Of a stretch of DNA of 64,000 nucleotides, positions 1 through 27,465 are shown piece after piece. A program made the position numbers and the translations under genes. Origin of the DNA: an uncultured Gammaproteobacteria bacterium (lineage in GTDB: Bacteria; Patescibacteriota; Microgenomatia; Levybacterales; UBA12049); NCBI GenBank assembly GCA_964521295.1, contig CAZFRF010000001.1, forward strand, positions 850,066 to 914,065, written 5' to 3'. Each line of letters begins with the position of its first letter. The first letter of the stretch is position 1. Below the pieces are notes generated by a model that saw nothing but the letters and a program-made list of their open reading frames with translations, was not told the DNA's origin and did no database searches.

Positions 1-3000
1 TATATCTTTCTTGATCTCTAGATCCACTGGAGACTTGAACTGTTCCATCATAATCTTCAATGGCTCTTCCAACAACCCTACTGCTTTTAGTCGCTTTCAT
101 TGCAACTCCAGGTACACTTGATGAAGTTAAGTAGTCATTAGTACGAATTGGACCATTTTCTAGGGACACTTTTACAACAACTCTTCCCGCGAGTCCAATT
201 GCTTGAGGATAGTGATCTTCAGGAATAGTTGAGTCTCCTAATACATCTCCATTTGGTCCAGTTGGAATTGTTGAAACAACTCCGATTAAGTTTTGATCAT
301 ATGGAGTAGTTGGCTTGACAACTTGATATTTAAATCTGGCATCAGAACTGGCAACTAAGCTAACTAAATCTCCAGGTTCCATGTCTTCCGTTCCTGGATA
401 ATACTCAGCTATATCAGTTGCAGATCCATTACAGTCATTAATATTTGAATCGGCTTGAGCACCGTTTGTGCCATGGCAAAACGCAAATGTGCCGGATACA
501 TTTTGGATATCTAGTTGTATATTTCCTTCAACATCGAGTCCGCCTGCACCAATTCCAACTTCGCCTCCATTATTATTGAGCCATAGTTTTGATGTGGTTC
601 CATTGAGTCTTGCCTGCAGCTCATTGTTATCAAATCCTACATTTTGGCCTCCAGTGTCTCCGATTATAAATGTTCCAGCATTGGATAAAGATACGTCTGG
701 ACCCCAAGTTATAGCCAGCTGAGCTCCAGGATTACTTGTTCCTATGCCTACATAGCCATTATTAGCAATAGTTAAAGCAACGTTACCTATTCCTGCTCGA
801 TATACGGTTGATAGTGAAGCGGCTGATTCACCTGATCCTCCGACTGCAAAAATATATGAATTTCCGTTTACAGTAACTAGTGTAGTTCCAATATAGGCTA
901 CGTTTTGAGGAAGTTGCGATTGTCCTGAGCTCGACCATGTGCCAGGATTACCTGAAGAATCTAAGGCAGTTTTGTATACAGCATTGCTTGATGTAACAGC
1001 GTTGTTATCTCCACTTCCAATAGAATAAATATAAGTTTTATCATTTAAGGTAACTATTTCTGTTCCACCTTCCTGTCTATTCATAGGTAATCCAGTCACT
1101 GAGCTAAATGTTCCTAAGGTACCGTTGGATGGATTAACAGCTGCTTTATACACAGTACTGCGTCCTTGGGAGTCTCCACCGCCCACATAATAAACATATG
1201 TACTACTTCCAATAGTTGCACTAACAGCTCCACCGCCACCTCGATTGGCAAGTAGAGGAGAAGTGGTAGAGAATGTTCCTAAGGTACCATTACTATTAAC
1301 AGTTGCTTTATAAACTGTAGATGTAGGATTGGTGTTTACAGCGGTTGAATTAAATCCTCCCATTGCGTAAATATAGGTTGTTCCTCCAACAGTTGCAGTT
1401 GTGACAGCTGGTTCAAGTCTGGTTGCAAGAATAGGAGAAGTTGTTGCAAAAGTTCCTGGATTACCATCACTGTTGCTAAGCGTTGCGTAATAAGCGGTTG
1501 ACTGAACTGAGCCACTTGATCCACCAATAAGATAAACATATGTACTTGATCCAATAGTTGCGGTTGTTGCGCCTCCTCCCCAGCGTATGCCTGGTAATGC
1601 ATTGGCGGTTGAACTAAATGTTCCTGCGTTACCAAAGGTTGCATCAACTCTGGATTTATAAACGGTAGAGAGGCTTGTTCCACCACTGTTTTGTCCCCCT
1701 AATGAGTAAATATAAGTTGTTCCGTTTACACTAGCGCTTGTGATTGAGCCAAAAGTATCATTTAGGGCTTGGGGTAATTGACTCTGATTTGCTGTTGAAA
1801 AACCATCTCCTATGTCTCCATTTCCTTCAGTTCCACCTGGTGAAACCATGAAATTTAATTTACTACCATTTAGTACATAGTTGCTAAAATTATTTGTTCC
1901 ACCGCTGTATGCTAAATTACCAGAAATAGAAGCTGATCCAGCAACATCAAGTTTTGCTTTTGGAGTTGTTGTTCCTAAGCCGAAATCACTATCTAAGATA
2001 TATGAACTATCTCCGCCCCAGGCAACTAAATGAACTTTTTTAGAACCAGTAATATATAAGTCTAAGGAACCGTTACCATTTGAGTCTGTGTTAAGAGTAA
2101 AGGCTTTGTTAGTTCCTGTCGTTGTGTCATAACCTTCAACTAAGGTTGGAGCCCCAGCGCCTACAGCTTTTATAGAAAGATACCCGGATGGTAGAGGATT
2201 GTTGATACCTACTTTACCTGCATTAGTGATAACGAATCTAGATGTTCCCGATGAGGAGGCTGCGAAGATGTCTTGATTTTCTATCTGATCAAGAATTGTT
2301 AAAGATTTGCCTGTCGTGCCTGCGGATAAGGCTCTTGTAACATAGAGTTCGGAAGTTGGGTTTGTGGTTCCCAGTCCAACTAGGCTATTTCCCGTCAATC
2401 TCAATACTTCTCTGAATGCGCTCTGATTATATCTTGTATTAAAGGTTAATGCAGAATCAATGCTGCCGTTACTAGAATCAGTAAGTAGAGCATTTATTGT
2501 TGCTGCTTCTCTTATTGTACTGCCATCATCTTCTAAATTAAATTCAAGTCTTGCTCCAATTCCATCCGCTGCGGTTCCGGTTGAAGACCTTGTTAGGTTA
2601 AGTACTGTAAGAGCAGTATTTGTCGACGCATCGTTATTAACTATTTCCATGATGCCTCCACCACCTATGCCATTGGGACTAGCGGTTCCCACACCAACTT
2701 CTCCTGCAAAATAATTATATGTTCCCGCATCTGAAGAATAGATAGAGTAAGGTGTATTAGTTTGTGTTCCAGCGGTTAAATCTCCGATATATACTCCATA
2801 AGTATTAGTAATTGTTCCAGAATTTCCAGATAGGGTTAATGATAAACCCCTTACTCCAGCAACCGTACCTGTGTCGCTATTGCCAATAGTGCCTCCAATA
2901 GCTATTAATGAACCAGTTGTGTTTTGAGTTGAAGCACTATGATTTTCAGCTGCAGCATCTAGTGCTAAATATTGTCCTGAACAAGCAACTGATGTGCAAA

Positions 3001-6000
3001 TGTTTTGCAAGAGAACTCGAGAGGTGGATTTACTTGTTGCATCTGTACCTTGGTTGTAAAAATATGTTCTATATATACTTGAGGGTGCTATTCCAACTCC
3101 AAGACTTCCGTTTACAAAGAGTCCATCACTTAAAGGTGTAAAAGTTGTGTTTGTAGCACCATTTGTAATGGTTGCATAGGTTGTTCCATTGTCCTTAAAA
3201 ATTACATCATCTCCAGCAGCGTCTAAAATGATATCTCCTGAAGAATCTAGAGTCATGTCTCCTGTAGAATTTAAGGTAAGAGTGGTAGTTGGTGAAATAG
3301 TTAACGATCCATCAGTTGTAATGTTGTCACCATTAACTGCTAAGTTGCCAACTAGAGTAAGGGCACCGGCTCCACTTAAGGTCATAGCAGTAGTTGTTCC
3401 TCCATACCATTTGAACTGTTGGCCAGTTGTACTTACGGTAGAGAACATTGTTCCAGATTCAATACCTAAAGTGTAGCCAGCAGCAGATCCACTTAGATCG
3501 TTATATAAAACAATTTTTACTCCAGAGCTATAATTTGTGAATGTTGGTGCGGCAACACCTGTGGTGTTAAAGTTAATTCTATCTGAAGTTATCGAAATAT
3601 CTCCACCACTTGGATTAATTGTTAAGTCTCCACCTGAGTTAGTAGTTAAATCTGCATAGTTTGTAGCAGATCCATTACTATCGTTATATGTTAGTCTTAG
3701 GTTAGTTCCACCAGATGAATTAATTTCTAAGGCTCTATCTGGAGCAGTTGTGCCTACGCCAATATTACCGTTTTGTAAAATTGTTAGCATGTTTTGCATG
3801 GTAATTGCTCCATCTGCGGCTCCTGCAGCATTTGATATATTAAAGCTCATGGTTCCAGTTGAGGGGCTAACGTTAATTTCGCCTCCATAATGAGCTGTGC
3901 TGCCTTGGCCAAATTTCCAACCACTGTTGTAATACGCATTAAAACCAACAGTTGGATTGGATGCGACTGTATATAGAGGGAATGATGATCCAAATTTTCC
4001 AAATGTATTTCCAGTTGCTTTTTCTATATCTAGAGCTACTTCTGGAGAAGTTGTGCCAATACCAACTTTTCCCGTAGAGCTTTCGATCATCATGTCTGCT
4101 GTTCCTGCAGCATTTGCTGCAAACCAAAGATTTTGCTGTGATCGAACAAAGACATCATATTGAGAGCTTCCTGTTATATAGGCGCCAGCTGTGCCAATAA
4201 TTCCAAACCAGCCCTTATCTGTTCCGACAGAATTTTTAAGTCCATAAAGAGTGTTAGTAGTAGCAGATGGTTGAGTTAAAGTAAGGTTATTGGTTACATC
4301 AACACTACTTGGAGTATAGATTTGTTGATTATTATATAAATATCTCCAATATCCTCCAGCTGGAATTCCGCTTGTAACTGTTCCTGCACCTGTATAGCCA
4401 TAACCGTCACCTGTATAGGTTATATGCATAGCAGCAGATCCTAAGGCTCCAGACTCACCAAGGGAGATATATGCTCCTTGAGATGTCCAGTTATCACCAG
4501 TGCTTAATGAATCTAAGACTAGTCTAGGTTGGGTTGCATCTGTGTCAGAAAGTACGTTATTTGCTGAGTTATATGTTCCTCCGATAGCATCAATGTTGCC
4601 AGTGACTGCAAGATTTGAAGAGGCGTCTAGTGTCATGCTTGTTGTAGTTCCTCGTCTGTCCCAGCTATATGCATCATAAGTATTAAAGACCATCGTGCTG
4701 CCTTTAACTCCAAGTCCATATGAATTTCCTGCTGTTGCGTCGGAGTATAAGAGAATTTGATATTCAGCAAATGTATCTAGGAATCCAGTAGCGACATTAT
4801 TTCCTAAAGTTAATTTTGCATCAGGAGTTGAATCTCCAATGCCCAATTTATTAGCAGAGTCATCCCAGAAGAAATTAGTATTGTCTTGTGAAAGAACTCC
4901 ACTAGTTCCAGCGAATACCACACTTCCTGGAGTCAAGGAGGTGTCGATTGATCCTAGATAGGTTGTGCCTGCAACTTCTAAATCACCTGTTACATAAAGA
5001 TCATCTCCTGCAAGGTCAACTATTCCTGGTGTTCCAGTTCCTATTTTTACTCCACCACCAGCTGCGTCTATTGTTAAATCACCAGATGAGGTAAGTGTAT
5101 TACCTGAAAGATTTAATGTTCCTGCTATGTCGTTTGATGTGCCATCAACATCTAGGTTACTTGATACATTTAGTGCCCCTGTTAAGGTTAACAATGCGCT
5201 AGTTCCAGCTAAGGTTGGTCCTGCGCTTCCTAATTTTATACTTCCTCTTGTTGTGTCAGACGAAGAATAAATACCCAAAGTATTGGCAACGTCAACGTCA
5301 GTTAAGAATGTGTCATCTCCAATCTTAAGCATTGATGTGCCTGCAGCTTTTCCATTGTCTGAAATATCTAGTCCAGTATCTGAGTAAATCCATCCTTCAG
5401 CTCCAATGGAATCAGTTACGAATAAATCATCTCCTGTTAAGCTAAATCCTGCTTGAGAAATAGTTTCTGATAAAGAGCCTACTAATAAGTCTCCATTTAC
5501 TGCTATATCTGCATCTATTAAAGATGCTCTGAGGGAAACTTGATCTATATATAGAGTACAAGCATTAGTTGGATTGTGATTATATATTTGAACAGCAGCA
5601 TGATAAGCATTTGCAGCTGATGTTACCTGTCCACTGTAATTATCCCAAGAGGTCGTAACTGCTCCAGAGTTTGAGTATATATCATTATAGCTTAGATAGT
5701 TTCCCCATTGGTCATACCAGATGACTCTTAAATAGAATCCATCTCCGCATGCTGTATCTACTTTTGCCCAAGTTGAGGCTGTATAGCCTGTGGAAGGGGA
5801 TACGGGTATCTTATATGAGGATATATTTTGTGACTGAGTATCTGAGCCAGTATTGGTTAAGTATAATCCCCATGCACCATCGTGATTTGCACTTTGATTA
5901 GCAATTCTTCCTCTTGTACCAGTTCCAGCTGAGTTCCAATTATCTGCTATACCTAATCCTCCAGCAAAGGTTTCGAAGCTTGGATTTGCGAGCATGTTTG

Positions 6001-9000
6001 TGTTATTGTATGGGGCAGGTATTGCTGAGTGAGATGCAACTGCAAAATCGTTTGCGGCATAAGTTAAGCCAGTAACATTTAAATTACCATCTACATCTAG
6101 ATTACTACCTATCTGGACAGATCCAGGCGTATAAATATTTTGAGTGTTATATGTATATCTCCAATATCCTCCAGCTGGAATACCAGATGTTACAGTTCCT
6201 GCGCCTGTATAGCCATAACCGTTACCAGTATAGGTAATATGCATAGACGCAGATCCTAGTGCTCCACCTTCTCCAATAGAGATATATGCCCCTTGAGCGG
6301 TCCAGTCATCTCCAGTGCCGACTGAGTCTAAAACGAGGTAGGGTTGACTTGCGTTAGCGGTATTACTTATATTGCCAATATTTGTAATATTTCCTGTTGT
6401 GTCTATAGCCCAATCAGATGTAGTTATTGCTCCTGTTTCTCCACCATCACCAAGAGTAAAGATTCCATTTGCATCCAGGGTTCCATTAGCGGTTAGAGTT
6501 CCAGTTGATGTTAATCCTCCTGCGCCAACAGAAACTAGGCCTCCTTCTGCATTAAGGAATAGTGTACTTGCTGTAGTTCCTGCAGTTCTAGCCATAATTT
6601 CATTACCATCCATTGTGATGTTGTCACCAGCAGTGTCGCCAAGAATTAATGCGCCTGAAAGGGCAGTTGCTAATGAAGAATCTCCAGTATTATTTAATAC
6701 AACTTGTCCACCACTTGGATCAATAGTTAAATCTCCACCTGAGTTGGTAGTTAAATCTGCATAGTTTGTAGCAGATCCATTACTATCATTATATGTTAGT
6801 CTTAAATTTGTTCCACCAGATGAATTAATCTCTAAGGCTCTATCTGGAGCAGTTGTTCCAATACCAACATTACCACCTATAGGATTAAGAGATAGCGCTC
6901 TTTGAGTTGAGCCATTTTCAACAGATTGAATCCAGGAGTACATTGTAGATGTATTGTCTACTCCCATTGCCAATCTCATTGCTGTTGTACTTCCTGTAAT
7001 TAGGGAACTACCTAATTCTCCTGCTGGAGTAGTTGATCCACCAGCAACGTGTAATTTAGTTAATGGTCCTGTTGTGCTAATGCCTACATTTCCAGCGAAA
7101 TAGTTTTGATCAGTAGAGCTATTGTAAATAGAGTATGTGCCTGTTGGAATTGAGGTAGAGCCAATTACTAAGTTCGATTGATTTGTTCCCGTAGCTTCTC
7201 CAATTAAGATACCTGCATTATTAGTTCCGGTAGTTAAGCCTCCAACTTGAATACCCATTTGATTCGTTAGGGTTCCAGTTACAGTACCATTATTTATTCC
7301 ATAATTAATACCATTGGTAACAGTGTGTCCTGTTGCTGAATCGATTCTACTCCAAAGTCCATATGCATTTGTGGTAGTCCCTCCGTTACCAGCTCCTGTT
7401 ACTAATGATAGTAGGCCAATTAAATTTGCTTGCGTTCCAGTTGTATGAGTAGCTCCTGTGTTAAGTCTTAAATTTTGTTTTAAGCCTGTATCTGCAGCTG
7501 AGTAATTAATAGTAGAGTATATACCAAATTGCTCAGTTGCTGTGGCTGAGCCCCAAGTCTTAGCAACAGAAAGTCTAGTTGTAGATCCAGGAGCAGCAGT
7601 ACCAATTCCTAAAGAATCATTCGTGTCATCATAGAATAGGCTGGCATTATCCTGTGAAAGAACTCCGCTTGTTCCAGCAAAAACAACGCTTCCTGGTGTA
7701 AGTGCAGTATCAATTCCACCGTCTGTATATAAAACTCCATCGACTTCTAAGTCTCCTTCAACAAACAAGTCATCGTCTCCAGTAGCAGTTCCAGGAGTTG
7801 CAGTATCTCCAACTCTAACATATGAAGTCCCATTAAGTGTAAATGCGGCACCAGTAGTCATTGAAGTTAGAGATGAGGCAGTAATGCCGGTTGTGCCAGA
7901 GAAAGTAAGGCCTGTATTTGTTAAAGTTGTGGTTGCACCAAGAGTAAGTCTACTAGTTCCTGCTGAGTCTAAGATATCATTGCCGTTTACTCTAAAATCG
8001 TCTGCAATCGTAAGTGCTCCTGCATTAGTCAAGCTCATGTAGCTAGTAAGCGCACCGAGGCTTGTTCCAAATCCGAATCTAGCAACTGTTCCTGTAGTAT
8101 CAGTCCATATGCCAAAGTTTCCAGTACCATCTGCTAATCCAATTCCGCCTCCATATGATCCTGAAGCTGTTAATGCAAATGTATCGATGCCATTACTTGG
8201 GTTTGTAGCAGAGGTAATACCAGTAATTTGACCAACTTGTGTTGTACCACCAACACTTAGATAGTTTCCACTTCCTATCACTACATTAGAGCCACTTGGA
8301 TTAATGGTTAAATCTCCGCCTGAATTAGTAGTTAAATCTGCATAGTTAGTTGCAGAACCATTGTTATCATTGTATGTAAGTCTTAGATTATTTCCAGTTG
8401 CTGAATTAATTTCTAAAGCTCTATCAGGTGCTGTTGTGCCGATACCGACATTACCATTGCCCTTTACTGTTAGAAGGTGGGTGAGAGCGGTTCCAGGAGC
8501 ACTTGATATTGGCGTTCCTAAGACTCCAAATACTCCTTGGTTTACATCGTCAGCGCCCAAATATATTGCTCCGGCAGAGGTAATACCTCCGTTATTTGAT
8601 CTCAAATAAACTTCATTAGCTGCTCCTACTGCATTTTGAACATTTACTCCTATTACCTTAGCAGCATATCCAACACCTGTATTTACATCTCTACTGTTTA
8701 GGATATATAAATCAGATTCAGTTACTGATCCACCTTGCAGATTTGTTATGAAATCACCGGTGCCACCAGCACCAGAGGTTCCAGTAACTTGAAATTTTGC
8801 AGTGGGATTAGTAGTTCCAATTCCGACTCTTCCATTCCCTGCAATTGTCATAGCGTTTGTAAGTCCTGCGTCTCCGCCGGGAGATGTTTGAAAATCGAGT
8901 CTAGAACCGTTAAGAATATCTATTGTTTGATTAGAGGCAGACTGAAAGACTAAGCTTCCTGATATTGAAGCGTCACCTGTTGTTGCATTAAAGTTAATAT

Positions 9001-12000
9001 TTGAATTTGTATCAGGAGTTGAGTTTGTAGCATTATTTGCTGGATTGCTTGATCCAAAAATACTGAGCCATGTGCCAGTTTTTACAGCTAAAGTGGAATT
9101 AGCTATACCTAAAGCGAATGAATTTGACCAAAGTCCTACCTTCCAGCCTAAGTTTGTTCCTACTGTAAGTGGAGAACCGGTAATTGTGGTATTTCCATTT
9201 GCAGCAATATATCCATTATTGTTAATTAATCCGCCTGTCCCGTTATTTGGTAAGAGAGTAATATTTCCAGTAGTACTTCCTCCAATAGTTAAGGTATTTT
9301 GATCATAGGATTGAATAGATCTACTGGCTCCTTCTAGAACTAAGTTTCCAGAAACTGAAGCAGAGCCATCTAGTCCTAATAAATTGTTTTGATCCATTCT
9401 GATTCCAAAATTTCCATTACTTGACCAAGCTGACGCATAAGTTTGAGATGTAGGAATTTCCTCTAACATGAATCCATCAAAAAGAGCAGTTGTACTTGCA
9501 CAGTTTGCATCTACCCTAATAATTACTGCAGTTGATCCTGAATTAGAGGTAAAGGTGTTGCTAAGTCTAGTCCATGACGAGGTATCTGCTGTTCCTCCTG
9601 CTGATCTATGAGTCCCATCGCTTTCTCTTACATACATTTCTACGCTACAAGTCGTACCCGCAGAAAGCTTAGAATACACAGAAAAAGCATATTTTGTACT
9701 TGGTTTAATTGGTATGTTGTAGCTAGTTGAGGATGTTCCATTTAGGTAAGCATATCCGTCTGTAGCTGATCCATTGGTACTAACTGCTACGCTTCTTGTT
9801 CCGTCATATGCATCTGCGGTACTAATGGTAACTGAAGTTACATTTACATTTCTAGCTGAAGGAATATTTGTTCCATCTACACCTGTTTCCCAAGATGCAT
9901 ATTGATAAGGAAGAATATTTTTACCGGCAATTATTCCAGATGCACCAAGTCCACCAGATATATTTACAAATCCTGAACCATTACTTGGAGATAAATTAAT
10001 ATTTCCAGTAGTGCTTCCACCAATGGTTAAGGTATTGTTTCTAACAGATTGCAATGATCCATTTCCAGATAGATAGATACCTTTTGTTGCATCTGATCCT
10101 GCAGTTGCTGAAACAGATGCTATTGGTGTTAGTGTTCCTGCTATATTTAATACTGCAAACTGTGCAGAACTTGTTGAATTACCTCCAACTAGTAAATCCA
10201 TGGTGTTATTAATTGGAGTTAAAGCTTTACCATCAGTAGAGGTTGTCCACCAGTTAGTGCCTAATGCGCAATTTACCCAGGATGCAGTTGCTCCGCCAGC
10301 TATACATTGAGATCCTGTTCCATAATTTAATCCATTAGATCCAAGAGAAATTCCACCAGCTCTAGTTATGGTAAAGACTGGAGTGCCTGATGCTGAAGCG
10401 GTGAAAATATCCTGATTTTCAATCTGATCAAAAATAGAGAGAGCTTTACCTGTTGCTCCAGAGGCAAGTGGCCTGCTTACATATAGTTGAGATGTTGGTA
10501 CTGTATTACCAACTCCAAGTCCAACTAAACCAGTATTGGTGATAGTAAGTCTAGTATTTGATCCCTGATAGATTCTAAAATCATCTTGATAAGCATCTAA
10601 GTTATAGGCATTAACTGTGGTATCGTAATCGGCTGCGGTGTATAGAATAACTTCTCCTCCTTCAGAGCTTCCTGTTCCATTACCATAAGCGTGAAATAAT
10701 CCTCCAGTAGTATCATTGACACCAGCATATATATTGCCATTTTGTGAGGTAAAGGCTCCTGATGTTATTAAATCTCCGCCACTAGGATTAATTGATAAAT
10801 CTCCACCTGAATTTGTAACTAAATCTGCATAGTTAGTTGCAGAACCATTGTTATCATTGTATGTTAATCTTAAATTAACTCCAGTTGCTGAGTTAATTTC
10901 TAAGGCTCTATCTGGGCCAGTTGTGCCTATGCCAACATTGCCTGCGCTAGGGAAATACATAGCAGTTGAGCCATTAACATTGATACTTAACGGATCATTA
11001 GCACTAGTTATGAATGCAGAATTGTTTCCTTGTCCAAAATCAAAATTTCCAGTAGTGTTTTCTGTTCTTACATAATTATTTGAAGTATCTCCTCCATGTA
11101 ACCAAAGACCTTGATTGTTCCCTGAAGCAAGATATTGCTGCATTGCTCCTCCTTGAACATTTAATTTTGAAGTTCCAGGATTAGTTGTGCCTATGCCAAC
11201 ATTGCCATTCCCTGCAATTGTCATAGCGTTTGTTAGTCCCGCATCACCGCCAGGAGAGACTTGAAAATCAAGCCTAGAACCGTTAAGTATATCTATTGAT
11301 TTATTTGATCCATTAAATACAAGACTACCTGATGTAGAAGCGTCACCATTAATGTCAAGTTTGGCAGTAGGTGTGGTGGTATTTATTCCTAAATTTCCAC
11401 TTGTATCAAATCTCGCAATTTCTGAATTGTTAAGGAAGAAGCTGACAGGATTATTTGTAATGGTTCCAATAACTAATTTCGCATTGTTATTATCCCAATA
11501 AAATCTTCCAGTATTTGTGCCTGTAGAATTTGCTACCAAGAATCCTGATCCACCAGAGCTTGTATTGACTACTCTCGCATATATAGGATTTGTACTTGAT
11601 CCAGAGATATCAAGTGGTTCTGTTGGGCTTGATGTTCCAATTCCAACATTACCGTTTCCATTCCTAGGCATTAAAGCTATATTCCCAGTAGTACTTCCTC
11701 CAATGGTTAAGGTATTGTTTCTAACAGATTGCAATGATCCATTTCCAGATAGATAGATACCTTTTGTTGCATCTGATCCTGCAGTTGCTGAAACAGATGC
11801 TATTGGTGTTAGTGTTCCTGCTATATTTAATACTGCAAACTGTGCAGAACTTGTTGAATTACCTCCAACTAGTAAATCCATGGTGTTATTAATTGGAGTT
11901 AAAGCTTTACCATCAGTAGAGGTTGTCCACCAGTTAGTGCCAAGAGCACCAGCCGCGCAAGTAGATAAAATGTTTGAACCATCATAACAGAGTGGATTGG

Positions 12001-15000
12001 AGGCTCCTGAGTTTAATGTTCCAATTGCTAATTTATCATCTGTTTTAAGAGTATCAGCTGCTGATCTGTATAAATTAGTATCTCTAGAAGCACCAAAAGC
12101 AATTCCATTGGCAGCATCAGTATTATCAGCACCAGATGATAACCAAAGAACTTGAGTATCAGCGCCTGCTATTGTTATTCCGTAATCATTAGTATCTCCT
12201 CCTGTTTGATCTTGAATATATAGACCATGATTGTTGACGATGGTGCCTGTCGAAGTAGGGTTTTGAATATGGATACCATATGCGTTAGTAATTGTAGCCG
12301 TGGCATTAGATGCTGATATAAGAGATGTTATTCCATAACAGTTTGTTATTGTTGTCCCTGCGCTAGCAGCTTGGCATTGTGACCATATGCCATATGTATT
12401 TGTAAATGTTTCAGATAGGCCACTAGACTGTAATCCTCTTGCCCAAATTCCATAAGTAGTATCTGCATCTTGTGAATCAAAATATCCTCCGTATCCAGTA
12501 ACGATTCCATTTGAAGCGTAATCTCCATTTTCATAGGATTGAGCATATATTCCTCGGCTTGTCGTTATGGTTGCGCCGTCAGTTGTGGCATAGGAAATGA
12601 ATCTACCACCGTCATTGTTAGTTACAGTACCACCCGCATTACTGTTTTGGGCAATACCATATATGCCCATATTACTTGTTACTGTTCCTGCGGCATTCAA
12701 ATTTGCAATTCCATATGTGCCGGCCGAAGTAGTTGCTGTATTACCAAAGGAAGAGAGAGTGGAGGAGCTTATTAAGGAATATCCTTGAGTTCCATAAGAA
12801 GTGTCAATTGTGTAGCCATTGTTTAATTGCGATACGTTATATCCTGCGATTGCAGTATGTGAGAACATATCGTCACTTGCAGTGGTAGTTACATAATTAT
12901 ATAGTCCATAATCTGTTCTATTTGCGTTAATAGTTCCAGTTATGGTTCGTTGAACTGTGCCTGTATATGTTTTTGCGTTAATATCTGAATTTGAATCATT
13001 TATGTCAAAAAGTCTATCTGTTCTCGCAATAGTTCCATTGCCAAGTGCTAGGGTTGGGGCAAGAGCGTTTCCGTTTGAATCTACTTGGAAAAGGTCTCCA
13101 TTTCCAACTACAAATAGCTTAGAAGGAGTGGAATCTCCAATTCCTACGTTTCCACCGTTTGGTTGAAGTAAGAGATATGATGTTGTTTTAGTAGCGTGTG
13201 ATGTTCCTTCAAGAGTAAGATTTCCATTAGCAGCAGTGTCTCCATAAACTGTTCCTGCACCATTTCTAGGCATTAACCAAATATTTCCAGTAGTATTTCC
13301 ACCGAGAGTTAAATTGTTATTAGTTGTAGTCTGAATGCTTCTTGCTCCGCCTGATAGGGTAAGGTTTCCTGCAATTGATGCAGTCGAGCCAACCGTAAGG
13401 GTATCATCGATAGTTACATCGTTGTAGAATCTAGAATCTCCATTGTCATCAATTGCGAATGATGTCCCGCCTCTAATTTGGAAAACTATTCCGTTGGTTC
13501 CAGCTGAAGGAGCAGTATTGGATGAATCCGTAGTGGCATTAATTATTAAGCTTTTAGCATTGTTAGTTGCTGAATAGCTTGTTAAAAAGTTGCCTCCAGC
13601 AGTACCGCCAATTCCAACATTTTGAGTTGTGCTTCTGCCGATATTGGCAACATCAGTAATGTCTCTAAAGGCTGATAATAAGGAAATTGGGGTGGTTGTG
13701 CCAATTCCAACATAGCCTGAGTTGTTAAGAGGGGAGAGGATTATATTCCCAGTAGTATTTCCGCCTATGGTGAGTTGTTGGTTGGCAGTAGATTGAATTT
13801 GAGCAGTGCCATTTCTGAAAGTAAATTGTCCGCCGACAGACGCTGCGCCGTCTACATCCAATATTGCAGTGGGAGAAGTGGTTCCAATTCCCAATCTACC
13901 ATTTGGTGTAATTCTCATTTGCTCTGATCCACCAAGCTTCCAGGTTAGGGTAGGTGCAGATGCGCCTGTGATTTCTTGCTCAATTATATTAGTAGCCTCT
14001 GTAAAGTTGTATTGAAAAATTGGCAGATTTGATCCACCTGCTCTTTGTAATCTAAATAATGTACCATCTCCAGTACTATTTACTTGGAGTCTAGCAAGAG
14101 GGTTAGTAGTTCCAATTCCTACATTGCCACCTGCACCATTTTTTGGCATTACAATTAAATTTCCGGCAACAGTTGCAGTTGCTGGTCCTGTTCCATTTAA
14201 GCCTAGAACTGCGAATTTTGCAGTTGCTGTAGCTGTTCCACCTAAAAGAAAGTCCATTGTTGAGTTAATTGGAGTTAAAGCTTTTCCATCAGAGGAGGTG
14301 GTCCACCAATCTGTTGGAAGTCCGCTCGCACAAGAACCCCAGGTGGGAGTTGTAGCTCCAGAAACTAAACAAAGTCCAGAGCTACCAGTTACTGCGCTTA
14401 AAGCTCCTGTTGCTGAATCAGCATATAAGACTCTATTGTTTCCGGTGAAGGAGGTAGTTAGCGTTCCTATTAAGGTTGCGGATCCTAACTGAAGCGTACC
14501 TGCTGAAGCATAAATATCATGATTTCCAGATCCACTAAACCTAAGATCTGCTCCGGTTCCACTTAATACTATGCCTGTTGCTCCACCTACTGAAATATCA
14601 CCTGAATTTGTTTGGTTTCCACCGTTATCTACGGTAAATACTGGCGCTCCAGAAACGGAAGCGCTAATTACTGGACCTGTAGAATTTTGATTTACTGTGA
14701 ATGCCGATTGTCCAGATGAGGTAGCGAGAATTGCAAACTGATCATTAACTTCAACTGCTCCTGCTGCTGTAAAAGCTCCTGCTGCTGATCTAATATTGGT
14801 AGAAAGAGTATTGTTTTGTAAAGGTTTTTGGACATCAATTTTACCAGTGCCATTTGGACTAATGACTACATTTGAATTACTAGAGTCATTAGTTGTTAAA
14901 AGTAATGGTTGACCTGAAAGCTTAAATTGTCCGCCGCTTGCTGAGAAAGCAGGTGAGGCTGATCCACCAATTGTTAGGTTTCCGGATGAGTCTAGGGCTA

Positions 15001-16582
15001 AGACAACATTTGATGTGCCTGCGGCTGTAGCAGTGATTGGAAGAAGTCCTTGTAATGTTTCAGAATTCGCTGCATAGCCGACAGTTGCAATTTGTTGCCT
15101 AGGAGTAAGCTCTCCTGTTGATTCAACGGTTACACCTAGGAACAAAGCTGCATTTTCTGCAAATAGAGTAGAGGGGATTGCACATTGTCCAGTTGCAATT
15201 GCGATTGGATTAGCGCAGGTTGGTCCACTACCAAGTAAGGTATTAAAAATACCATCTTGGTCTGGTGTTACTTTGTCTACTTCTTGCCAAAGTAAAATAC
15301 CTGCACCTGTTCCTGGAGTTTGTTGAGTGTAGATCGCAAATCTAAGATTGGTTAAAGAAGTAATAGGATTATCATTGTTATCTGTAAGTCTTCCTTGGAA
15401 GGAAAGGATTCTATTTGGTGAGGTTGGTAGGTTAGGAGCAGCTGTGATTTTAGATTGGTTTCCAAAGAAGGAATTATAAAAACCTAAAGATATGGCAACA
15501 ATAACGATAATAAATACTGCAAAGTGGAAATAGTGGGTAATTGCATATGAATGATATCTTTTGTACCAATTTGGTCTAGTAAATCTAGCGTGAAAAATAA
15601 TTCTTTGTAGAGGAGAAAGAGAACTAACGGCTATGGTTGAAGGTGCAAAAACCTTTTTAGAAATATTTCTTATACCCAATAAGTCTTTGTGGGTAATGTT
15701 TTTAATTTGAAATGTTTGGGGATTCTTGTGAAAAATTGGTTTTCCTTTGAGTGTCCAGGCTAAATCTTGTCCTTTTTTAGCAAAAGAAGCTAAAGGAAGT
15801 ATTAATGCAGCATCTAAAGCTAAGATTAATCCTTGGGATAGTTTCTGAGCAAGTCTTAAAGGAGGGAATCTGGAATATGTTTTAGTTTTAATTTCTGGTT
15901 GTGAAAATTCAGGAGTCTCAGGTATAAATAATTTTTGTTTTGCCTCATTTATATTTGTGAAATCTAATACTTTTTCAGTTAAGATGCCAGCTTCATCTGC
16001 CCAAGTTAGATATTTTCTCAAAGAAGATAGTTTTCTATTAACAGAGGCTGGCGAAAAGCCTTTGGAGCTACTTAATGCTGTCTTGTATTCTTCGATAAAT
16101 TCCTTGCTTATTCTGCCTGGTAATATTGAGTCTTCGAGTCCAGTGGCTTCCTTTGCCCAATTAATGAATTGTTTAACATCAATGATATAGTTTTTTATAG
16201 TAAGATGCGCTGCGTTAGTATCGAATAAGCTGCTTTTGAAATCCTTTAGCTTCCAATAGTCTTTTTCTTCTGGTTTATTTAAGGCTAAAGCTTCGAAAGG
16301 ATCAAAGGTTATTTGATTTTCGATCTTAAGGAATTTGAAGAATTTTCTAAGGGATGATAAGTGTCTTTGCATTGATGAAGCAGAGAAGACTGAGGAGTTG
16401 TCTTTTTTGTACTCTTCGAGTGTTTGGAAATTAACTTGGCCAGGAGTAAAGCTTGAGTTGTATTTCTGAGAAAACCAGTTAACGAAATGATTAATATCCG
16501 ATAAGTAGTTTTTTACAGTAACCTTTGAAGGCTGAACTTCTTGTGAAAATAAATAATTTTTAAAGCTTGTTAATAAATCCAT
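1..16582 (-). CDS. Giant cell-surface repeat protein of at least 5,527 codons; its 3' end lies beyond window position 1. Domain order: N-terminal 2x integrase-SAM-like (core-binding-like) repeats, one TM helix, then tail-fibre-like 'GNVGIGTTxP(D/T)xALEINS...NSGGDLTINPSG' repeat units, two CBM4_9-like jelly-roll modules, and Kelch-like blades.
   Basis: Manual reverse-complement translation from ATG (complement of 16580-16582; an in-frame stop lies just upstream at 16604-16606) stays open in one frame (codon first bases at positions congruent to 1 mod 3) all the way to position 1. The frame was spot-checked at 12002-12058 and at 1-10. The gene is absent from the ORF track because no stop lies inside the window. 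All listed ORFs in 1-16582 are short, antisense or out of frame. N-terminus: MDLLTSFKNYLFSQEV...RHLSSLRKFFKFL plus a second copy ...NRKLSSLRKYLTWA, then a hydrophobic helix HYFHFAVFIIVIVAISLGFY. Confidence 0.8.
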   Translation of the reverse strand, partial: MDLLTSFKNYLFSQEVQPSKVTVKNYLSDINHFVNWFSQKYNSSFTPGQVNFQTLEEYKKDNSSVFSASSMQRHLSSLRKFFKFLKIENQITFDPFEALALNKPEEKDYWKLKDFKSSLFDTNAAHLTIKNYIIDVKQFINWAKEATGLEDSILPGRISKEFIEEYKTALSSSKGFSPASVNRKLSSLRKYLTWADEAGILTEKVLDFTNINEAKQKLFIPETPEFSQPEIKTKTYSRFPPLRLAQKLSQGLILALDAALILPLASFAKKGQDLAWTLKGKPIFHKNPQTFQIKNITHKDLLGIRNISKKVFAPSTIAVSSLSPLQRIIFHARFTRPNWYKRYHSYAITHYFHFAVFIIVIVAISLGFYNSFFGNQSKITAAPNLPTSPNRILSFQGRLTDNNDNPITSLTNLRFAIYTQQTPGTGAGILLWQEVDKVTPDQDGIFNTLLGSGPTCANPIAIATGQCAIPSTLFAENAALFLGVTVESTGELTPRQQIATVGYAANSETLQGLLPITATAAGTSNVVLALDSSGNLTIGGSASPAFSASGGQFKLSGQPLLLTTNDSSNSNVVISPNGTGKIDVQKPLQNNTLSTNIRSAAGAFTAAGAVEVNDQFAILATSSGQSAFTVNQNSTGPVISASVSGAPVFTVDNGGNQTNSGDISVGGATGIVLSGTGADLRFSGSGNHDIYASAGTLQLGSATLIGTLTTSFTGNNRVLYADSATGALSAVTGSSGLCLVSGATTPTWGSCASGLPTDWWTTSSDGKALTPINSTMDFLLGGTATATAKFAVLGLNGTGPATATVAGNLIVMPKNGAGGNVGIGTTNPLARLQVNSTGDGTLFRLQRAGGSNLPIFQYNFTEATNIIEQEITGASAPTLTWKLGGSEQMRITPNGRLGIGTTSPTAILDVDGAASVGGQFTFRNGTAQIQSTANQQLTIGGNTTGNIILSPLNNSGYVGIGTTTPISLLSAFRDITDVANIGRSTTQNVGIGGTAGGNFLTSYSATNNAKSLIINATTDSSNTAPSAGTNGIVFQIRGGTSFAIDDNGDSRFYNDVTIDDTLTVGSTASIAGNLTLSGGARSIQTTTNNNLTLGGNTTGNIWLMPRNGAGTVYGDTAANGNLTLEGTSHATKTTSYLLLQPNGGNVGIGDSTPSKLFVVGNGDLFQVDSNGNALAPTLALGNGTIARTDRLFDINDSNSDINAKTYTGTVQRTITGTINANRTDYGLYNYVTTTASDDMFSHTAIAGYNVSQLNNGYTIDTSYGTQGYSLISSSTLSSFGNTATTSAGTYGIANLNAAGTVTSNMGIYGIAQNSNAGGTVTNNDGGRFISYATTDGATITTSRGIYAQSYENGDYASNGIVTGYGGYFDSQDADTTYGIWARGLQSSGLSETFTNTYGIWSQCQAASAGTTITNCYGITSLISASNATATITNAYGIHIQNPTSTGTIVNNHGLYIQDQTGGDTNDYGITIAGADTQVLWLSSGADNTDAANGIAFGASRDTNLYRSAADTLKTDDKLAIGTLNSGASNPLCYDGSNILSTCAAGALGTNWWTTSTDGKALTPINNTMDLLVGGNSTSSAQFAVLNIAGTLTPIASVSATAGSDATKGIYLSGNGSLQSVRNNTLTIGGSTTGNIALMPRNGNGNVGIGTSSPTEPLDISGSSTNPIYARVVNTSSGGSGFLVANSTGTNTGRFYWDNNNAKLVIGTITNNPVSFFLNNSEIARFDTSGNLGINTTTPTAKLDINGDASTSGSLVFNGSNKSIDILNGSRLDFQVSPGGDAGLTNAMTIAGNGNVGIGTTNPGTSKLNVQGGAMQQYLASGNNQGLWLHGGDTSNNYVRTENTTGNFDFGQGNNSAFITSANDPLSINVNGSTAMYFPSAGNVGIGTTGPDRALEINSATGVNLRLTYNDNNGSATNYADLVTNSGGDLSINPSGGDLITSGAFTSQNGNIYAGVNDTTGGLFHAYGNGTGSSEGGEVILYTAADYDTTVNAYNLDAYQDDFRIYQGSNTRLTITNTGLVGLGVGNTVPTSQLYVSRPLASGATGKALSIFDQIENQDIFTASASGTPVFTITRAGGISLGSNGLNYGTGSQCIAGGATASWVNCALGTNWWTTSTDGKALTPINNTMDLLVGGNSTSSAQFAVLNIAGTLTPIASVSATAGSDATKGIYLSGNGSLQSVRNNTLTIGGSTTGNINLSPSNGSGFVNISGGLGASGIIAGKNILPYQYASWETGVDGTNIPSARNVNVTSVTISTADAYDGTRSVAVSTNGSATDGYAYLNGTSSTSYNIPIKPSTKYAFSVYSKLSAGTTCSVEMYVRESDGTHRSAGGTADTSSWTRLSNTFTSNSGSTAVIIRVDANCASTTALFDGFMLEEIPTSQTYASAWSSNGNFGIRMDQNNLLGLDGSASVSGNLVLEGASRSIQSYDQNTLTIGGSTTGNITLLPNNGTGGLINNNGYIAANGNTTITGSPLTVGTNLGWKVGLWSNSFALGIANSTLAVKTGTWLSIFGSSNPANNATNSTPDTNSNINFNATTGDASISGSLVFQSASNQTIDILNGSRLDFQTSPGGDAGLTNAMTIAGNGRVGIGTTNPTAKFQVTGTSGAGGTGDFITNLQGGSVTESDLYILNSRDVNTGVGYAAKVIGVNVQNAVGAANEVYLRSNNGGITSAGAIYLGADDVNQGVFGVLGTPISSAPGTALTHLLTVKGNGNVGIGTTAPDRALEINSATGNNLRLTYNDNNGSATNYADLTTNSGGDLTINPSGSNVVIGSGNYLSVGGTTQVGQITGITSATNPSNGIDTFALTASGSYGGGIGLADGTGNFGIWTDTTGTVARFGFGTSLGALTSYMSLTNAGALTIADDFRVNGNDILDSAGTSRLTLGATTTLTNTGLTFSGTTGITASSLTSMTTGAAFTLNGTSYVRVGDTATPGTATGDDDLFVEGDLEVDGVLYTDGGIDTALTPGSVVFAGTSGVLSQDNASLFYDDTNDSLGIGTAAPGSTTRLSVAKTWGSATATEQFGIYSTINYSAADTGLKQNLRLNTGATHTTGTQANLIGLLSLVTGAGNGGTTTNAYGLWSRIDSATGHTVTNGINYGINNGTVTGTLTNQMGIQVGGLTTGTNNAGILIGEATGTNQSNLVIGSTSIPTGTYSIYNSSTDQNYFAGNVGISTTGPLTKLHVAGGSTTPAGELGSSLITGSTTAMRLAMGVDNTSTMYSWIQSVENGSTQRALSLNPIGGNVGIGTTAPDRALEINSSGGTNLRLTYNDSNGSATNYADLTTNSGGDLTIDPSGGQVVLNNTGDSSLATALSGALILGDTAGDNITMDGNEIMARTAGTTASTLFLNAEGGLVSVGAGGLTSTGTLTANGTLDANGIFTLGDGGETGAITTSDWAIDTTGNITNIGNISNTANASQPYLVLDSVGTGDDWTAQGAYISIGEGGALGSASMHITYTGNGYGYTGAGTVTSGIPAGGYWRYTYNTQNIYTPGSVQIGSNLDVDGNLNVTGLTYAANDFAVASHSAIPAPYNNTNMLANPSFETFAGGLGIADNWNSAGTGTRGRIANQSANHDGAWGLYLTNTGSDTQSQNISSYKIPVSPSTGYTASTWAKVDTACGDGFYLRVIWYDQWGNYLSYNDIYSNSGAVTTSWDNYSGQVTSAANAYHAAVQIYNHNPTNACTLYIDQVSLRASLIDADIAVNGDLLVGSLSETISQAGFSLTGDDLFVTDSIGAEGWIYSDTGLDISDNGKAAGTSMLKIGDDTFLTDVDVANTLGIYSSSDTTRGSIKLGSAGPTLAGTSALLTLTGALNVSSNLDVDGTSNDIAGTLNLSGNTLTSSGDLTIDAAGGGVKIGTGTPGIVDLAGDDLYVTGDLEVAGTTYLGSIDTSLTPGSVVFAGTSGVLSQDNTNFFWDDSANKLGIGDSTPDAKLTLGNNVATGFLDTFAEYQILLYSDATAGNSYGLGVKGSTMVFNTYDAYSWDRRGTTTSMTLDASSNLAVTGNIDAIGGTYNSANNVLSDTDATQPRLVLDSLSTGDNWTSQGAYISLGESGALGSAAMHITYTGDGYGYTGAGTVTSGIPAGGYWRYLYNNQQIYTPSSVDVTNNLTLTQPSATTNTLYGLKNSVGTDKGWFGIIGTAGAYITGSSQYDVFVRSQQNLWFAANAAGTADMMIESSTGKVGIGTTSPEVALDIEKATGNTFGKFGSSFPLYTVASNPTVGFNAYYNSGWKFGQGSTAHYGGEINVSPSTGTMSFNISNAAGAADGAITMQNMLTILQNGNIGVGTTAPDRALEINSSGGTNLRLTYNDSNGSATNYADLTTNSGGDLTINPSGGDISITSDRINFNTTGVAAPTFTNYSSGVKIVLYNDLSGSAAGYTLGIESGTMFSTVSTTGQQFKWYGGTTTAMTLSGAGALTLVGNLAVNGDNITTDGSLTISPTTTLTLNSTGDMTLDSSGDIILDAAGDDVIFKDNGTTYATITNGATNTTFTPLSDGLFVNGSLGVGIAPSSIYRTYFYNQGTDATSKSTSRVLLQNICTSVACSGQYLALDAAAENHSASTQNTTGSLIAIGGTIGNSDTGTVAGVRGLSLTLSGNSGTITNTYGVYIGDLTAGTQTNTPYSIYSSDAGTYNYFAGEVGVGTASPNGIGGGGIMEIVNNDASTNTALTVLNLTRSSTGTAADGIGARLEFNLEDDGSTIREAATINALLTDSSNGSIDSALTFNTRYNQSAFREVLRLTGNSLVGLGTTNPTSELYVTRALSAGTTGKSLTILDQIENQDIFAASSSGTSRFVITNAGKVGINNPLPSGYLSIKAVGAGAPTLVEGYDTTTGTNKAFTLNTDSNGNGSLDLYITGSKKVHLVAWGGDSSYILDSDFGLGTTTPKAKLDVAGSASISGNLAYSGGTNNFSNYVLNGSKLNFMVSPGGTEGNGDIGDGFSTANQSQLPQALNDTFGSITSASVNGTTYIYSLGGQNSGGTSLSTVYKSRVDATFGNAGTFSSTANALPGIRWGGGATTATIGSSTYVYLIGGSSGSVQSTAYYATLSNSDGNPGTFATTSPILATRLEPAVTTATVGGTTYIYAMGGFNSTAVNTNPTSTVYKATVNSNGTLGTFSTTSPLLANRGGGGAVSATIGSSTYVYYVGGGDSQGRSTVYKAAVNPSNGTLGTFSSVTGLPMNRQEGGTEIVTLNDKTYIYSIGSGDNNAVTSSNAVYKTALDSSGNPGTWSSSGQSQLPQNVAYIGTTLVTVNGNSYIFAVGGSGESAASLSTVYRAGIGNVALTIANNGYVGIGTSNPGAQLAITWGPDVSLSNAGTFIIGDTGGQNVGFDNNELQARLNGTTSKLWLNNNGGEVGIGAGGLDVEGNIQLDIQNVSGTFAFCHGTNGAQADSNINDCNGSATDIAEYYPGTEDMEPGDLVSLVASSDARFKYQVVKPTTPYDQNLIGVVSTIPTGPNGDVLGDSTIPEDHYPQAIGLAGRVVVKVSLENGPIRTNDYLTSSSVPGVAMKATKSSRVVGRAIEDYDGTVQVSSGSRDQERY
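3603..3750. repeat. Copy of a ~140-bp near-identical coding repeat (the module encoding ...NSGGDLTINPSGG...LRLTYNDNNGSATNYADL...)
   Basis: Visual alignment with 6711-6858 gives roughly 95% identity. It is more distantly similar to 8297-8435 and 10785-10920. Confidence 0.6.
6711..6858. repeat. Copy of the same ~140-bp coding repeat
   Basis: Contains 'atctccacctgagttggtagttaaatctgcatagtttgtagcagatccattactatc' as in 3603-3750. Confidence 0.6.
8297..8435. repeat. Copy of the same ~140-bp coding repeat, sub-family B
   Basis: Contains 'aaatctccgcctgaattagtagttaaatctgcatagttagttgcagaaccattgttatcattgtatgt', nearly identical to 10785-10920. Confidence 0.6.
10021..10261. repeat. Intragenic 240-bp perfect direct repeat, copy 1 (inside the giant gene)
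   Basis: Read directly: 'caatggttaaggtattgtttctaacagattgcaatg...catcagtagaggttgtccaccagttagtgcc' is identical at 10021-10261 and 11701-11941. The offset is 1680 bp, which is 560 codons, so the copies are in frame. Confidence 0.9.
10785..10920. repeat. Copy of the same ~140-bp coding repeat, sub-family B
   Basis: See 8297-8435. Confidence 0.6.
11701..11941. repeat. Intragenic 240-bp perfect direct repeat, copy 2
   Basis: Identical to 10021-10261. The 20 bp flanking upstream already diverge at a few positions. Confidence 0.9.
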
Positions 16583-17114
16583 TTTAATTGTGACTCTTAA
16601 TATTTAAAAAAGAGTAGGCAGGCACGAGATTATACAGATTATACGCATTATACTCTTGTGAAAAAGAAAATTTACTCATACTATTAGAATAGAAAAAAAT
16701 GAATTTTCAAGTCAATGACCTAGAGTAAAGATCCATAAGATATTTTGATATAGTTTAATATATTCTAGAAAAAATGAATTTCACGGGAAAAATGGTGCAT
16801 TTGTTGAGCATTTAGTTGAAGTAGGGGGTTATAGGTCAAATTTTATATATTTCAAAATATAACAAAGTATAACATTGATTTTGTAATTCTAAATTGTTGT
16901 CCTAATGCTTTCCTAAATATTGATTAAGAAATTAATTAAATATTATGCCTGAAAGGTATTATTTTAGCAGACATTGTCTTTTACTGATAAGATAAATTTA
17001 TAATAGTTTTAGATTGTTAAATCAATAAAAATAACTTTATATTGCAGGTTATATTTATTAATTAGCTTCGAGCTTGTATTTAATATTATTTTCTATGTAC
17101 AATAAGTGTAAGTA

Positions 17115-18014: not shown

Positions 18015-18029
18015 TTTAAACTTACTGTT

Positions 18030-19478: not shown

Positions 19479-19569
19479 GTAAATAAAATAAGTGCTACTA
19501 TTACTATCTGATTTTTAAAATCAATTGTCAAGGTTTTTTGGGCTTAATTTAGATTCAAAACTGAAGATT

Positions 19570-26851: not shown

Positions 26852-27465
26852 TGGATAATTTCTCTGGTTTTGTCCTCGAGCTTTGCAAAAAGCACTGGCT
26901 TCCTTTGTCCCTCGGAGTATTAGGTTTGATATTCTTAATATATGGTTTGATAGGGTTATTTAATGCAAGTTCTCGATCTGATCAGATTAAGTTTGAGACT
27001 AATTCAGTAAATGATTCAAGTTTATCTGAAAAGTTAGTTTATGTGGACATAGAAGGCGAGGTCGTAAAGCCAGGTGTATATAAGTTAAAGCAAGACTCAA
27101 TTGTTCAAGATGTTTTTGTTGCTTCTGGTGGATTAACAGCTAGTGCAGATAGGGAGTGGGTAGCAAAAAATGTTAACTTAGCGCTTAAGGTTTCTGACGG
27201 ACAGAAAATATATATACCTAAAGTTGGTGAAGATGGTAAGACTATGTCGACTAGTGTCTTGTCTGGTTCGACAGCTAATTCTGGTCTTATAAATATTAAC
27301 ACTGCTTCGGAAAAAGAATTAGATAGTTTACCCGGAATAGGTCTGGTAACTGCAGCAAAGATTATTAATTTGAGACCATATGCCGCCATAGAGGATTTAG
27401 AAATAAATAAAATAGTTAGTTCTAAAGTGTATTTACAGATAAAAGATAAAATTGCCGTTTGGTAA
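26851..27465 (+). CDS. comEA: ComEA-like DNA receptor (TM anchor, SLBB domain, helix-hairpin-helix)
   Basis: C-terminal HhH 'NINTASEKELDSLPGIGLVTAAKIINLRP'. SLBB-like 'VYVDIEGEVVKPGVYKL...VSDGQKIYIP'. Its start overlaps the leuS stop (taATG). Confidence 0.85.
   Translation: MDNFSGFVLELCKKHWLPLSLGVLGLIFLIYGLIGLFNASSRSDQIKFETNSVNDSSLSEKLVYVDIEGEVVKPGVYKLKQDSIVQDVFVASGGLTASADREWVAKNVNLALKVSDGQKIYIPKVGEDGKTMSTSVLSGSTANSGLININTASEKELDSLPGIGLVTAAKIINLRPYAAIEDLEINKIVSSKVYLQIKDKIAVW

Follow-up and report, generated by a model that had tools for sequence, protein, structure and literature searches.

A Perfect 242-Nucleotide In-Frame Direct Repeat in a Giant Fibre Gene of a Levybacterales Bacterium, a Probable Recent Intragenic Gene-Conversion Patch

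Introduction

In antigenic variation of the cassette type, as in Neisseria pilE/pilS, Borrelia vlsE, and Mycoplasma genitalium MgPa, an expression site is combined with arrays of silent donors, and gene conversion creates diversity. Phage tail-fibre genes are reportedly mosaic, with conserved linker motifs that serve as recombination points, and deletion mediated by direct repeats is also said to have been described in bacteria. Here, we describe a perfect direct repeat of 242 nucleotides (nt) inside a giant gene that encodes a putative surface fibre in a bacterium belonging to the candidate phyla radiation (CPR). The repeat lies in a 64,000-nt stretch of DNA (positions 850,066 to 914,065, forward strand, of contig CAZFRF010000001.1 in assembly GCA_964521295.1; titled uncultured Gammaproteobacteria bacterium, GTDB lineage Patescibacteriota, Microgenomatia, Levybacterales, UBA12049), which is called the window below and whose own numbering is used throughout.

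Ectopic gene conversion and the concerted evolution of bacterial repeats are the subject of a review (Santoyo & Romero 2005, FEMS Microbiol Rev 29:169) as cited in PMC3661481; deletion between direct repeats has been documented in Legionella with repeats of 43-49 nt (PMC3661481). In Apilactobacillus kunkeei, the genes encoding giant surface proteins (Giant1-5) diversify mostly through short intragenic recombination and show highly mosaic divergence; the recombination described there is between strains, and no sign was reported of recent conversion among the paralogous giant genes (PMC12863079). The exact tract described here is, in our judgement, likely to be a recent intragenic (ectopic) gene-conversion patch between two paralogous junction modules of the giant CPR fibre gene.

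Results

Direct self-comparison of the window showed that positions 10020-10261 and 11700-11941 are identical base for base over 242 nt, and no further copies of this tract were found in the 64-kb window. The offset between the copies is 1680 nt, or 560 codons, and the copies are thus in frame; both lie in a single stop-free minus-strand frame of 5534 codons, which runs from 16603 down to 2 and past the start of the window. The ATG of the giant gene is located at 16582-16580, the same start as in the gene call on an independent Logan contig (L001). A first-pass annotation of this DNA had reported a perfect in-frame repeat 1680 base pairs (bp) apart within a giant gene, surrounded by diverged flanks; both observations were confirmed, the repeat being one base longer on the left, and the flanks showing 74% identity on one side and protein-level similarity only (a Cys loop) on the other. 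The features of the repeat region are as follows (aa, amino acid; HMM, hidden Markov model).

2..16582, minus strand: giant gene with no fewer than 5527 codons, its 3′ end outside the window (open frame and domain scan)
11700..11941, minus strand: proximal copy of the exact repeat, which forms the core of junction module copy 1, codons ~1555-1634
10020..10261, minus strand: distal copy of the exact repeat, which forms the core of junction module copy 2, codons ~2115-2194 (counted from 16603), encoding GTNWWTTSTDGKALTPINNTMDLLVGGNSTSSAQFAVLNIAGTLTPIASVSATAGSDATKGIYLSGNGSLQSVRNNTLTIG
10262..11699, minus strand: unique 1438-bp spacer, at background identity one period away, frame open throughout
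11594..12016, minus strand: copy 1 of the full junction module (aa 1530-1670), with Cys loop C1539/C1549, the conserved core, and TIGGSTTGNIALMPRNGNGNVGIGTSSP after it (HMM independent E-value 5e-77)
9914..10333, minus strand: copy 2 of the full junction module (aa 2091-2230), with Cys loop C2100/C2112, the conserved core, and ...GNINLSPSNGSGFVNISGG after it, continuing into CBM_4_9 (HMM independent E-value 7e-69)
14069..14368, minus strand: third, diverged module paralog, aa 746-845, Cys 745/758, DWWTTSSDGKALTPINSTMDFLLGG... (HMM matches)

The boundaries of the tract are sharp. BLAST lengthens the match to 284 nt at 96% identity (9978-10261 vs. 11658-11941), and all 11 mismatches fall within the 42 nt at the window-left end, which is the 3′ end in the gene and where identity is 74% (0 mismatches in the 242 nt of the tract vs. 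11 in the adjoining 42 nt; Fisher p = 2e-10). At the window-right edge (5′ in the gene), nucleotide identity falls to background immediately. The repeat (10001-10261) aside, identity at an offset of 1680 nt ranged from 0.15 to 0.45 per 60-nt segment across 7001-16000, with a background of ~30%. Duplication of the whole unit was rejected, the rest of the 1680-bp period being at background identity; the 1438 bp that separate the copies are matched by nothing one period on, past the second copy, and, because they are unrelated to the next 1438 bp, the repeat is not a tandem duplication. Spacer and one repeat copy make up the 1680-bp (560-codon) block that would be removed or doubled if the repeats recombined. 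Chance was ruled out as the origin of the exact tract, the other paralogous repeats in the giant gene being 80-92% identical. A head-to-tail array as in the alpha C, Bap, and Esp surface proteins was rejected as well, since there are two copies only, with 1438 bp of unique sequence between them.

Both copies of the repeat represent the core of a conserved module of ~120-140 residues in the giant protein. The module begins with a short Cys loop, followed by NWWTTSTDGKALTPINNTMDLLVGGNSTSSAQFAVLN..., and then ...SLQSVRNNTLTIGGSTTGNI; its pattern can be written as Cys loop, NWW..L.P.N.T.DLL.GG.STSSA.FAV.., then ..TLTIGGSTTGNI..., or in short as Cys-loop / NWW..GG.STSSA.FAV..TIGGSTTGNI. A profile made from the copies identified three full modules (aa 746-845, 1530-1670, and 2091-2230) plus partial C-terminal matches elsewhere in the protein; the third module shares 82% nucleotide identity with the tract over 62 nt only. 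Past the module, the two copies are unrelated, with GNVGIGT repeats after copy 1 and a CBM_4_9 domain after copy 2. A total of 166 module copies were found in related loci and 28 in 16 database proteins; in the module alignment, D52 and G56 never vary, and W35, L54, G57, A63, and F65 hardly do. The module matched no Pfam, PHROG, or PDB entry (the PDB sequence search reached only E >= 0.15), and the AlphaFold model, built from an alignment of 26 sequences, was of low confidence and mostly extended coil (mean predicted local distance difference test score 70, predicted template modelling score 0.42). The 3′ flanks of the two copies seem, by eye and unscored, to fit different subtypes elsewhere (...LMPRNGSGYVGIGTSSP in protein P0003 and ...LSPNNGTG... 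in protein P0001); as the flanks appear to match distinct subtypes in other organisms, the two modules are likely to have been distinct before the event that made their cores identical.

All 18 cysteines among the 5534 residues are paired, most of them 10-13 residues apart, and the pairs mostly open junction modules (463/474, 745/758, 1410/1422, 1539/1549, and 2100/2112). The window also contains VKOR and DsbA-like thioredoxin genes (39704-40901), which fits extracytoplasmic disulfide loops.

Synonymous sites distinguish identity of the protein from identity of the DNA. Amino-acid identity between the two modules spans 90 residues (aa 1553-1642 vs. 2113-2202), and nucleotide identity is confined to codons 1555-1634. 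Six of the ten codons that are identical in amino acid outside the tract differ synonymously (GCT/GCA, CTT/TTA, GGA/GGT, AGT/AGC, GGG/GGA, and ATA/ATT), as compared to none of the 80 codons inside it, synonymous sites included; the identity therefore arose at the DNA level and not through purifying selection on the protein. The tract is discrete, with homogenised synonymous sites, and is bounded by synonymously differing codons, while homology reaches well beyond it, taking in both full modules, the third paralog, the 3′ flank at 74%, and the conserved 5′ Cys loop. Judged by this pattern of substitutions, the tract is to all appearance a young DNA-level patch over old paralogs.

Two other origins of the identity were weighed against gene conversion. 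Selection could maintain identical nucleotides if the module carried a nucleotide-level element, such as an RNA structure, an internal promoter, or a binding site; we found no point in support of such an element, and three findings speak against it. No Rfam family matched inside the giant gene, the predicted fold of the tract RNA is ordinary (z = -1.28; 26 of 200 shuffles fold as well), and modules elsewhere are conserved as protein but not as nucleotide sequence (median nucleotide identity between loci of 0.47), which makes this explanation hardly credible. The second origin is a recent duplicative insertion of a piece of ~240-280 bp, or of a larger block that was later overwritten. A very recent duplication would likewise yield a perfect repeat, and the similarity of modules within one genome cannot by itself tell duplication from conversion. 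However, both modules are complete and have old homologous flanks, namely the 5′ Cys loops and, at the 3′ side, TIGGSTTGNI..P.NG.G with synonymous differences; nothing else of the 1680-bp period is duplicated; and, because 242 is not a multiple of 3, an inserted piece of 242 nt would break the frame unless it replaced homologous sequence, which amounts to conversion. We thus regard an insertion as quite improbable. Very recent gene conversion or duplication had been proposed in the first-pass annotation; given the old homologous flanks, we retain conversion, and duplication is set aside because 1438 bp of the period lack a counterpart.

Under gene conversion, homologous recombination would have copied the core of one module (codons ~1555-1634) onto the other (codons ~2115-2194), or vice versa. 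This copying would have wiped out all differences, synonymous ones included, and would have left the older, diverged flanks in place. The process would be non-reciprocal homologous recombination of the RecA type; we infer the mechanism, the direction, and the recency of the event alike.

Patches of this kind are not confined to the window. Each of 46 related loci was compared with itself at a patch threshold of >=90% identity, and in-frame patches at or above this threshold were found within homologous giant genes in about a dozen of them; these genes come from independent assemblies of Levybacteria and Patescibacteria. The longest exact in-frame runs measured 269 and 324 nt in L008, 198 nt in L029, 387 nt in L044, 120 nt in L043, 96 nt in L028, and 84 nt in L040. 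All six pairs that were profiled (two in L008 and one each in L025, L003, L028, and L029) showed a plateau of ~100% identity, shoulders of 50-60%, and a background of 25-30%; in L008, L025, and L003, the patch falls in the same module type as the window tract. Among module pairs, the 95th percentile of nucleotide identity was 0.67 within a locus vs. 0.55 between loci.

Two loci from Levybacteria-like metagenome-assembled genomes (MAGs), L020 (JAGOUW010000003.1) and L022 (CAYXTY010000040.1), are collinear orthologs with 90.7% protein identity over 1617 aa, without gain or loss of a segment over this length. Their nucleotide identity is 97-100% in blocks and drops to 50-70% at two Cys-loop modules (aa 691-850 and 1291-1350), a profile by which the pair is best described as a probable recombination mosaic between close relatives. 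An intragenic donor was sought for the diverged module segments and rejected, as the best paralog was only 76% identical; the mosaic is thus not assignable to intragenic conversion. Together, the comparisons among these loci show what looks like a family-wide habit of patchy homogenisation, of which the window repeat would be the youngest example seen among the loci compared.

Two side observations concern the same set of loci. In L017, a 142-nt repeat with 94% identity (17767-17905 vs. 19949-20090) lies over the part of two neighbouring minus-strand genes that encodes the hydrophobic N-terminal region, and represents another paralog pair with a homogenised 5′ end. The record titles of many MAGs that carry homologues (L003-L032) read "uncultured Gammaproteobacteria bacterium" (TPA_asm ..._co... 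series); relatives under a proper name belong to Levybacteria or Patescibacteria, and the Gammaproteobacteria titles look like a placeholder or a wrong taxonomy.

The way in which these contigs were assembled bears on the exactness of the repeat. An assembly artefact could have arisen if near-identical cores were merged into one consensus that was used twice, if deleted and longer forms were mixed and mis-phased, or if a (spacer plus repeat)n array was collapsed to n = 1. The 242-bp repeat is longer than typical k-mers and about as long as a short read, and a short-read contig crosses it only by paired-end repeat resolution. Independent assemblies of the source strain consist of short Logan contigs only (2-3 kb, from three runs, 100% identical to parts of 15718-~21000), which stop at 15718 or later and end short of the repeat. 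The source genome was absent from the genome, metagenome, and protein collections searched, and no paper was found to mention the run accessions. The related genome-contig loci with exact runs of >=198 nt all come from SPAdes-style NODE contigs, and four MEGAHIT-style k141 loci show runs of at most 63 nt (in L025; none in the other three), a limit that would follow if longer repeats interrupt k141 contigs. Since a MEGAHIT-type contig ends where an exact repeat outruns the k-mer, our survey probably undercounts such patches.

Against an artefact, the four junctions of the two copies (left-A, right-A, left-B, and right-B) must be real DNA, which places the tract in at least two contexts; the frame is open through both copies across the 5534 codons; and the module boundaries agree with the third paralog and with homologues elsewhere. 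In addition, near-perfect patches (95.7-98.9%) persist in similar assemblies, so that collapse is not automatic, and since collapse requires very high prior identity, a patch of high identity within diverged flanks would still be true. We consider it unlikely that assembly alone created the repeat.

The giant gene contains further repeats, which provide a scale for the age of the exact tract.

3602-3769, 6707-6874, 8288-8455, and 10775-10942, minus strand: 168-nt paralogous repeat in four copies, 82-92% identical, age reference for the perfect tract

This repeat family encodes GNVGIGTTAPDRALEINS..LRLTYND.NGSATNYADLTTNSGGDL; its closest pair shows 10 synonymous vs. 3 non-synonymous codon differences, and the differences are without A bias. 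A further repeat pair (4311-4537 and 6126-6352) is 80% identical. Differences among these older repeats are mainly synonymous and indicate a spectrum of ages; by this measure, the giant gene is apparently a patchwork of repeats of different ages. Outside the giant gene, two tandem GH26+CBM96 genes (31639-34086 and 34145-36658) encode proteins that are 54% identical overall, while nucleotide identity is 96% over a stretch made up of 41 nt upstream and the first ~66 codons (31598-31836 vs. 34104-34341; 8 mismatches and 1 gap). This shared 5′ leader, N-terminus, and hydrophobic anchor looks like a second, older conversion patch, as far as the sequence comparison goes.

The remaining features identified in the giant gene are the following.

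15968-16570, minus strand: two N-terminal Phage_int_SAM domains (integrase N-terminal, DNA-binding; domain scan)
15476-15532, minus strand: one strongly hydrophobic helix, aa 358-376, of the giant gene
9506-9832, minus strand: CBM_4_9 domain, aa 2258-2366 (domain scan)

The N-terminus of the giant protein matches integrase SAM-like domains only, and no catalytic Phage_integrase domain was detected in the protein; PHROGs likewise matched only this integrase-like N-terminus and no fibre family. More than 5000 residues follow, rich in Gly, Thr, Ser, and Asn and with recurring GNVGIGT motifs. The combination of an integrase-type SAM-like head, a single hydrophobic helix, and a giant extracellular fibre (15476-16582, minus strand) would amount to a DNA-binding head tethered to the membrane, an odd architecture. 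The homologues come from Levybacteria, Microgenomates, and other Patescibacteria; they are giant or partial proteins, and many end in Peptidase_S74 (PF13884); this domain was not detected in the part of the giant protein inside the window, the 3′ end of the gene lying beyond it. Among the homologues, P0106 and P0116 have the same Phage_int_SAM N-terminus, and P0001 and P0084 have MerR/HTH_17 instead. A total of 382 protein matches were obtained at E < 1e-10, many from Levybacteria, Microgenomates, and Patescibacteria, which indicates that the repeat modules are shared with annotated proteins of these groups.

The window is otherwise ordinary chromosome, with LeuRS, ComEA/ComEC, ArgRS, the two GH26+CBM96 genes, VKOR and DsbA, sortase, MreB, L10/L1/NusG, and tRNAs; the giant gene is chromosomal and is flanked by LeuRS, ComEC, and ArgRS. 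The sortase gene is located at 41516-42265. Genes for ComEA (HHH/SLBB), ComEC (Competence), and a metallo-beta-lactamase-fold protein are consecutive at 26851-29537; this row represents putative DNA-uptake machinery, which could bring in foreign alleles for recombination. An Rfam L10_leader was found at 49186-49301 (minus strand; 44.3 bits vs. a gathering threshold of 44 bits), upstream of the L10 gene at 48510-49193.

Discussion

Several points weigh against reading the tract as a recent conversion patch. A close ortholog or strain was not found, the best matches having at most 64% aa identity in contigs of genomes and metagenomes, and 60% in the case of the top-scoring protein matches, and an exact 41-mer of the tract had 0 matches in metagenome and viral contigs; a demonstration of donor, direction, and recency would require a close outgroup or strain. 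recA was not among the window open reading frames (ORFs) of >=150 aa, and RecA would be expected elsewhere in the genome, as in CPR genomes generally. A graph assembler can merge two copies with 95-99% identity into one path, so that "perfect" may overstate the identity. L007 (contig_9876, 894 kb), the sole related locus with a long-read-style contig name, is without a patch of >=90% identity.

If gene conversion made the two cores identical, it also left a potentially unstable arrangement. Two 242-bp direct repeats separated by 1.4 kb are, from their sequence and spacing, a plausible and legitimate substrate on which homologous recombination could remove or double exactly 560 codons; the minimal homology that RecA-dependent exchange needs is well short of 242 bp. 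The block could be lost or gained in frame, through unequal exchange or through slippage between the copies, and after a deletion the Cys loop of copy 1 would run on into the segment with the CBM that now lies behind copy 2. Neither an alternative junction nor a near-identical strain variant was retrieved from genome, metagenome, and Logan contigs or from protein collections, whether by protein-guided scans, by a protein search, or with the three nearest complete genes.

The first-pass annotation had gone further and suggested a built-in mechanism for length and antigenic variation; this suggestion is unsupported, given that silent cassettes, inverted repeats, a reverse transcriptase, and a catalytic recombinase domain are all missing from what was searched. 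In a stronger form, the modules would have evolved as recombination boundaries, and the frequent in-frame loss, gain, and shuffling of fibre segments at them would amount to programmed variation in phase or length. The recurrence of high-identity patches at the same module type in several lineages would fit such a dedicated device, as would the drop from 97-100% to 50-70% identity at the modules of L020 and L022 and the in-frame period of 560 codons, which would give a readable product. On the other side, neither silent cassettes nor other copies of the tract are present in the 64-kb window, no inverted repeats of >=24 nt occur in 1-20000, and no reverse transcriptase or catalytic recombinase was found in the window ORFs scanned; mismatches among the repeats lack an A bias, L020 and L022 remain collinear over their 1617 aa, and recombination between the most conserved stretches is expected to occur passively. 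We therefore hold a dedicated device to be very unlikely. Instability of the repeat would be explained more simply as a by-product of concerted evolution among modules than as a dedicated switch.

Three known classes of diversification system were also considered for the locus and rejected. A diversity-generating retroelement does not fit, with copies that are identical, older repeats without A bias, and no reverse transcriptase domain in the ORFs scanned; site-specific inversion (a shufflon) was rejected for want of inverted repeats of the above length and of a catalytic Phage_integrase match; and a cassette-type antigenic variation locus was rejected because the window, having no further tract copy, contains no silent donor.

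A broader idea may be stated for the family as a whole, although we think it doubtful and more probably wrong than not by a wide measure. The conserved Cys-loop junction module of the giant membrane-anchored fibres of Levybacteria and related CPR bacteria would then be an evolved recombination boundary; frequent conversion would hold its cores to one sequence, and these would in turn promote loss, gain, and shuffling, in frame and at high frequency, of segments of 300-1000 residues. If true, tiny episymbionts could vary the length and the binding specificity of their fibres without cassettes, and this would be analogous to the mosaicism of phage tail fibres, but within one chromosomal gene.

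If the structure is real, the tract dates a very recent recombination event inside the largest gene of the window. Ectopic homologous recombination appears to be active in this reduced CPR genome, given the second patch in the GH26 pair. The repeat would be a further instance of a well-known process, one by which repetitive surface genes ordinarily evolve, and by itself reveals no new mechanism. A testable prediction is a polymorphism for deletion or duplication of 1680 bp in frame. In practice, exact internal repeats of 100-400 bp in giant CPR fibre genes will fragment or mis-phase short-read assemblies, and because such repeats disturb assembly, the lengths of fibre genes and their repeat numbers in MAGs need to be read with caution.

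Among the described systems, direct-repeat deletion is resembled in that a block flanked by two identical direct repeats could drop out along with one of the repeats; unlike in the documented cases, no product of deletion or expansion was observed here. As in phage tail fibres, heterogeneous segments are parted by short conserved motifs, and homologues often end in Peptidase_S74 (endosialidase chaperone); in contrast to them, the gene here is a chromosomal gene of a cellular organism, no PHROG fibre family was matched, and the C-terminus lies outside the window. Cassette systems share with this locus the action of gene conversion on a surface-protein gene; here, however, conversion removes diversity between two expressed modules, and there are no silent copies in the window. 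The giant proteins of A. kunkeei are likewise very large and extracellular, and the L020/L022 ortholog pair is equally mosaic, but exchange at our locus is between paralogous modules within one gene, and the proteins are unrelated. The likeness to ectopic gene conversion consists in a tract of complete identity and discrete ends between diverged paralogs, homogenised synonymous sites, and patches of several ages; what would set this case apart is that the partners are a dispersed pair of modules within a single giant ORF, in a CPR bacterium that is uncultured.

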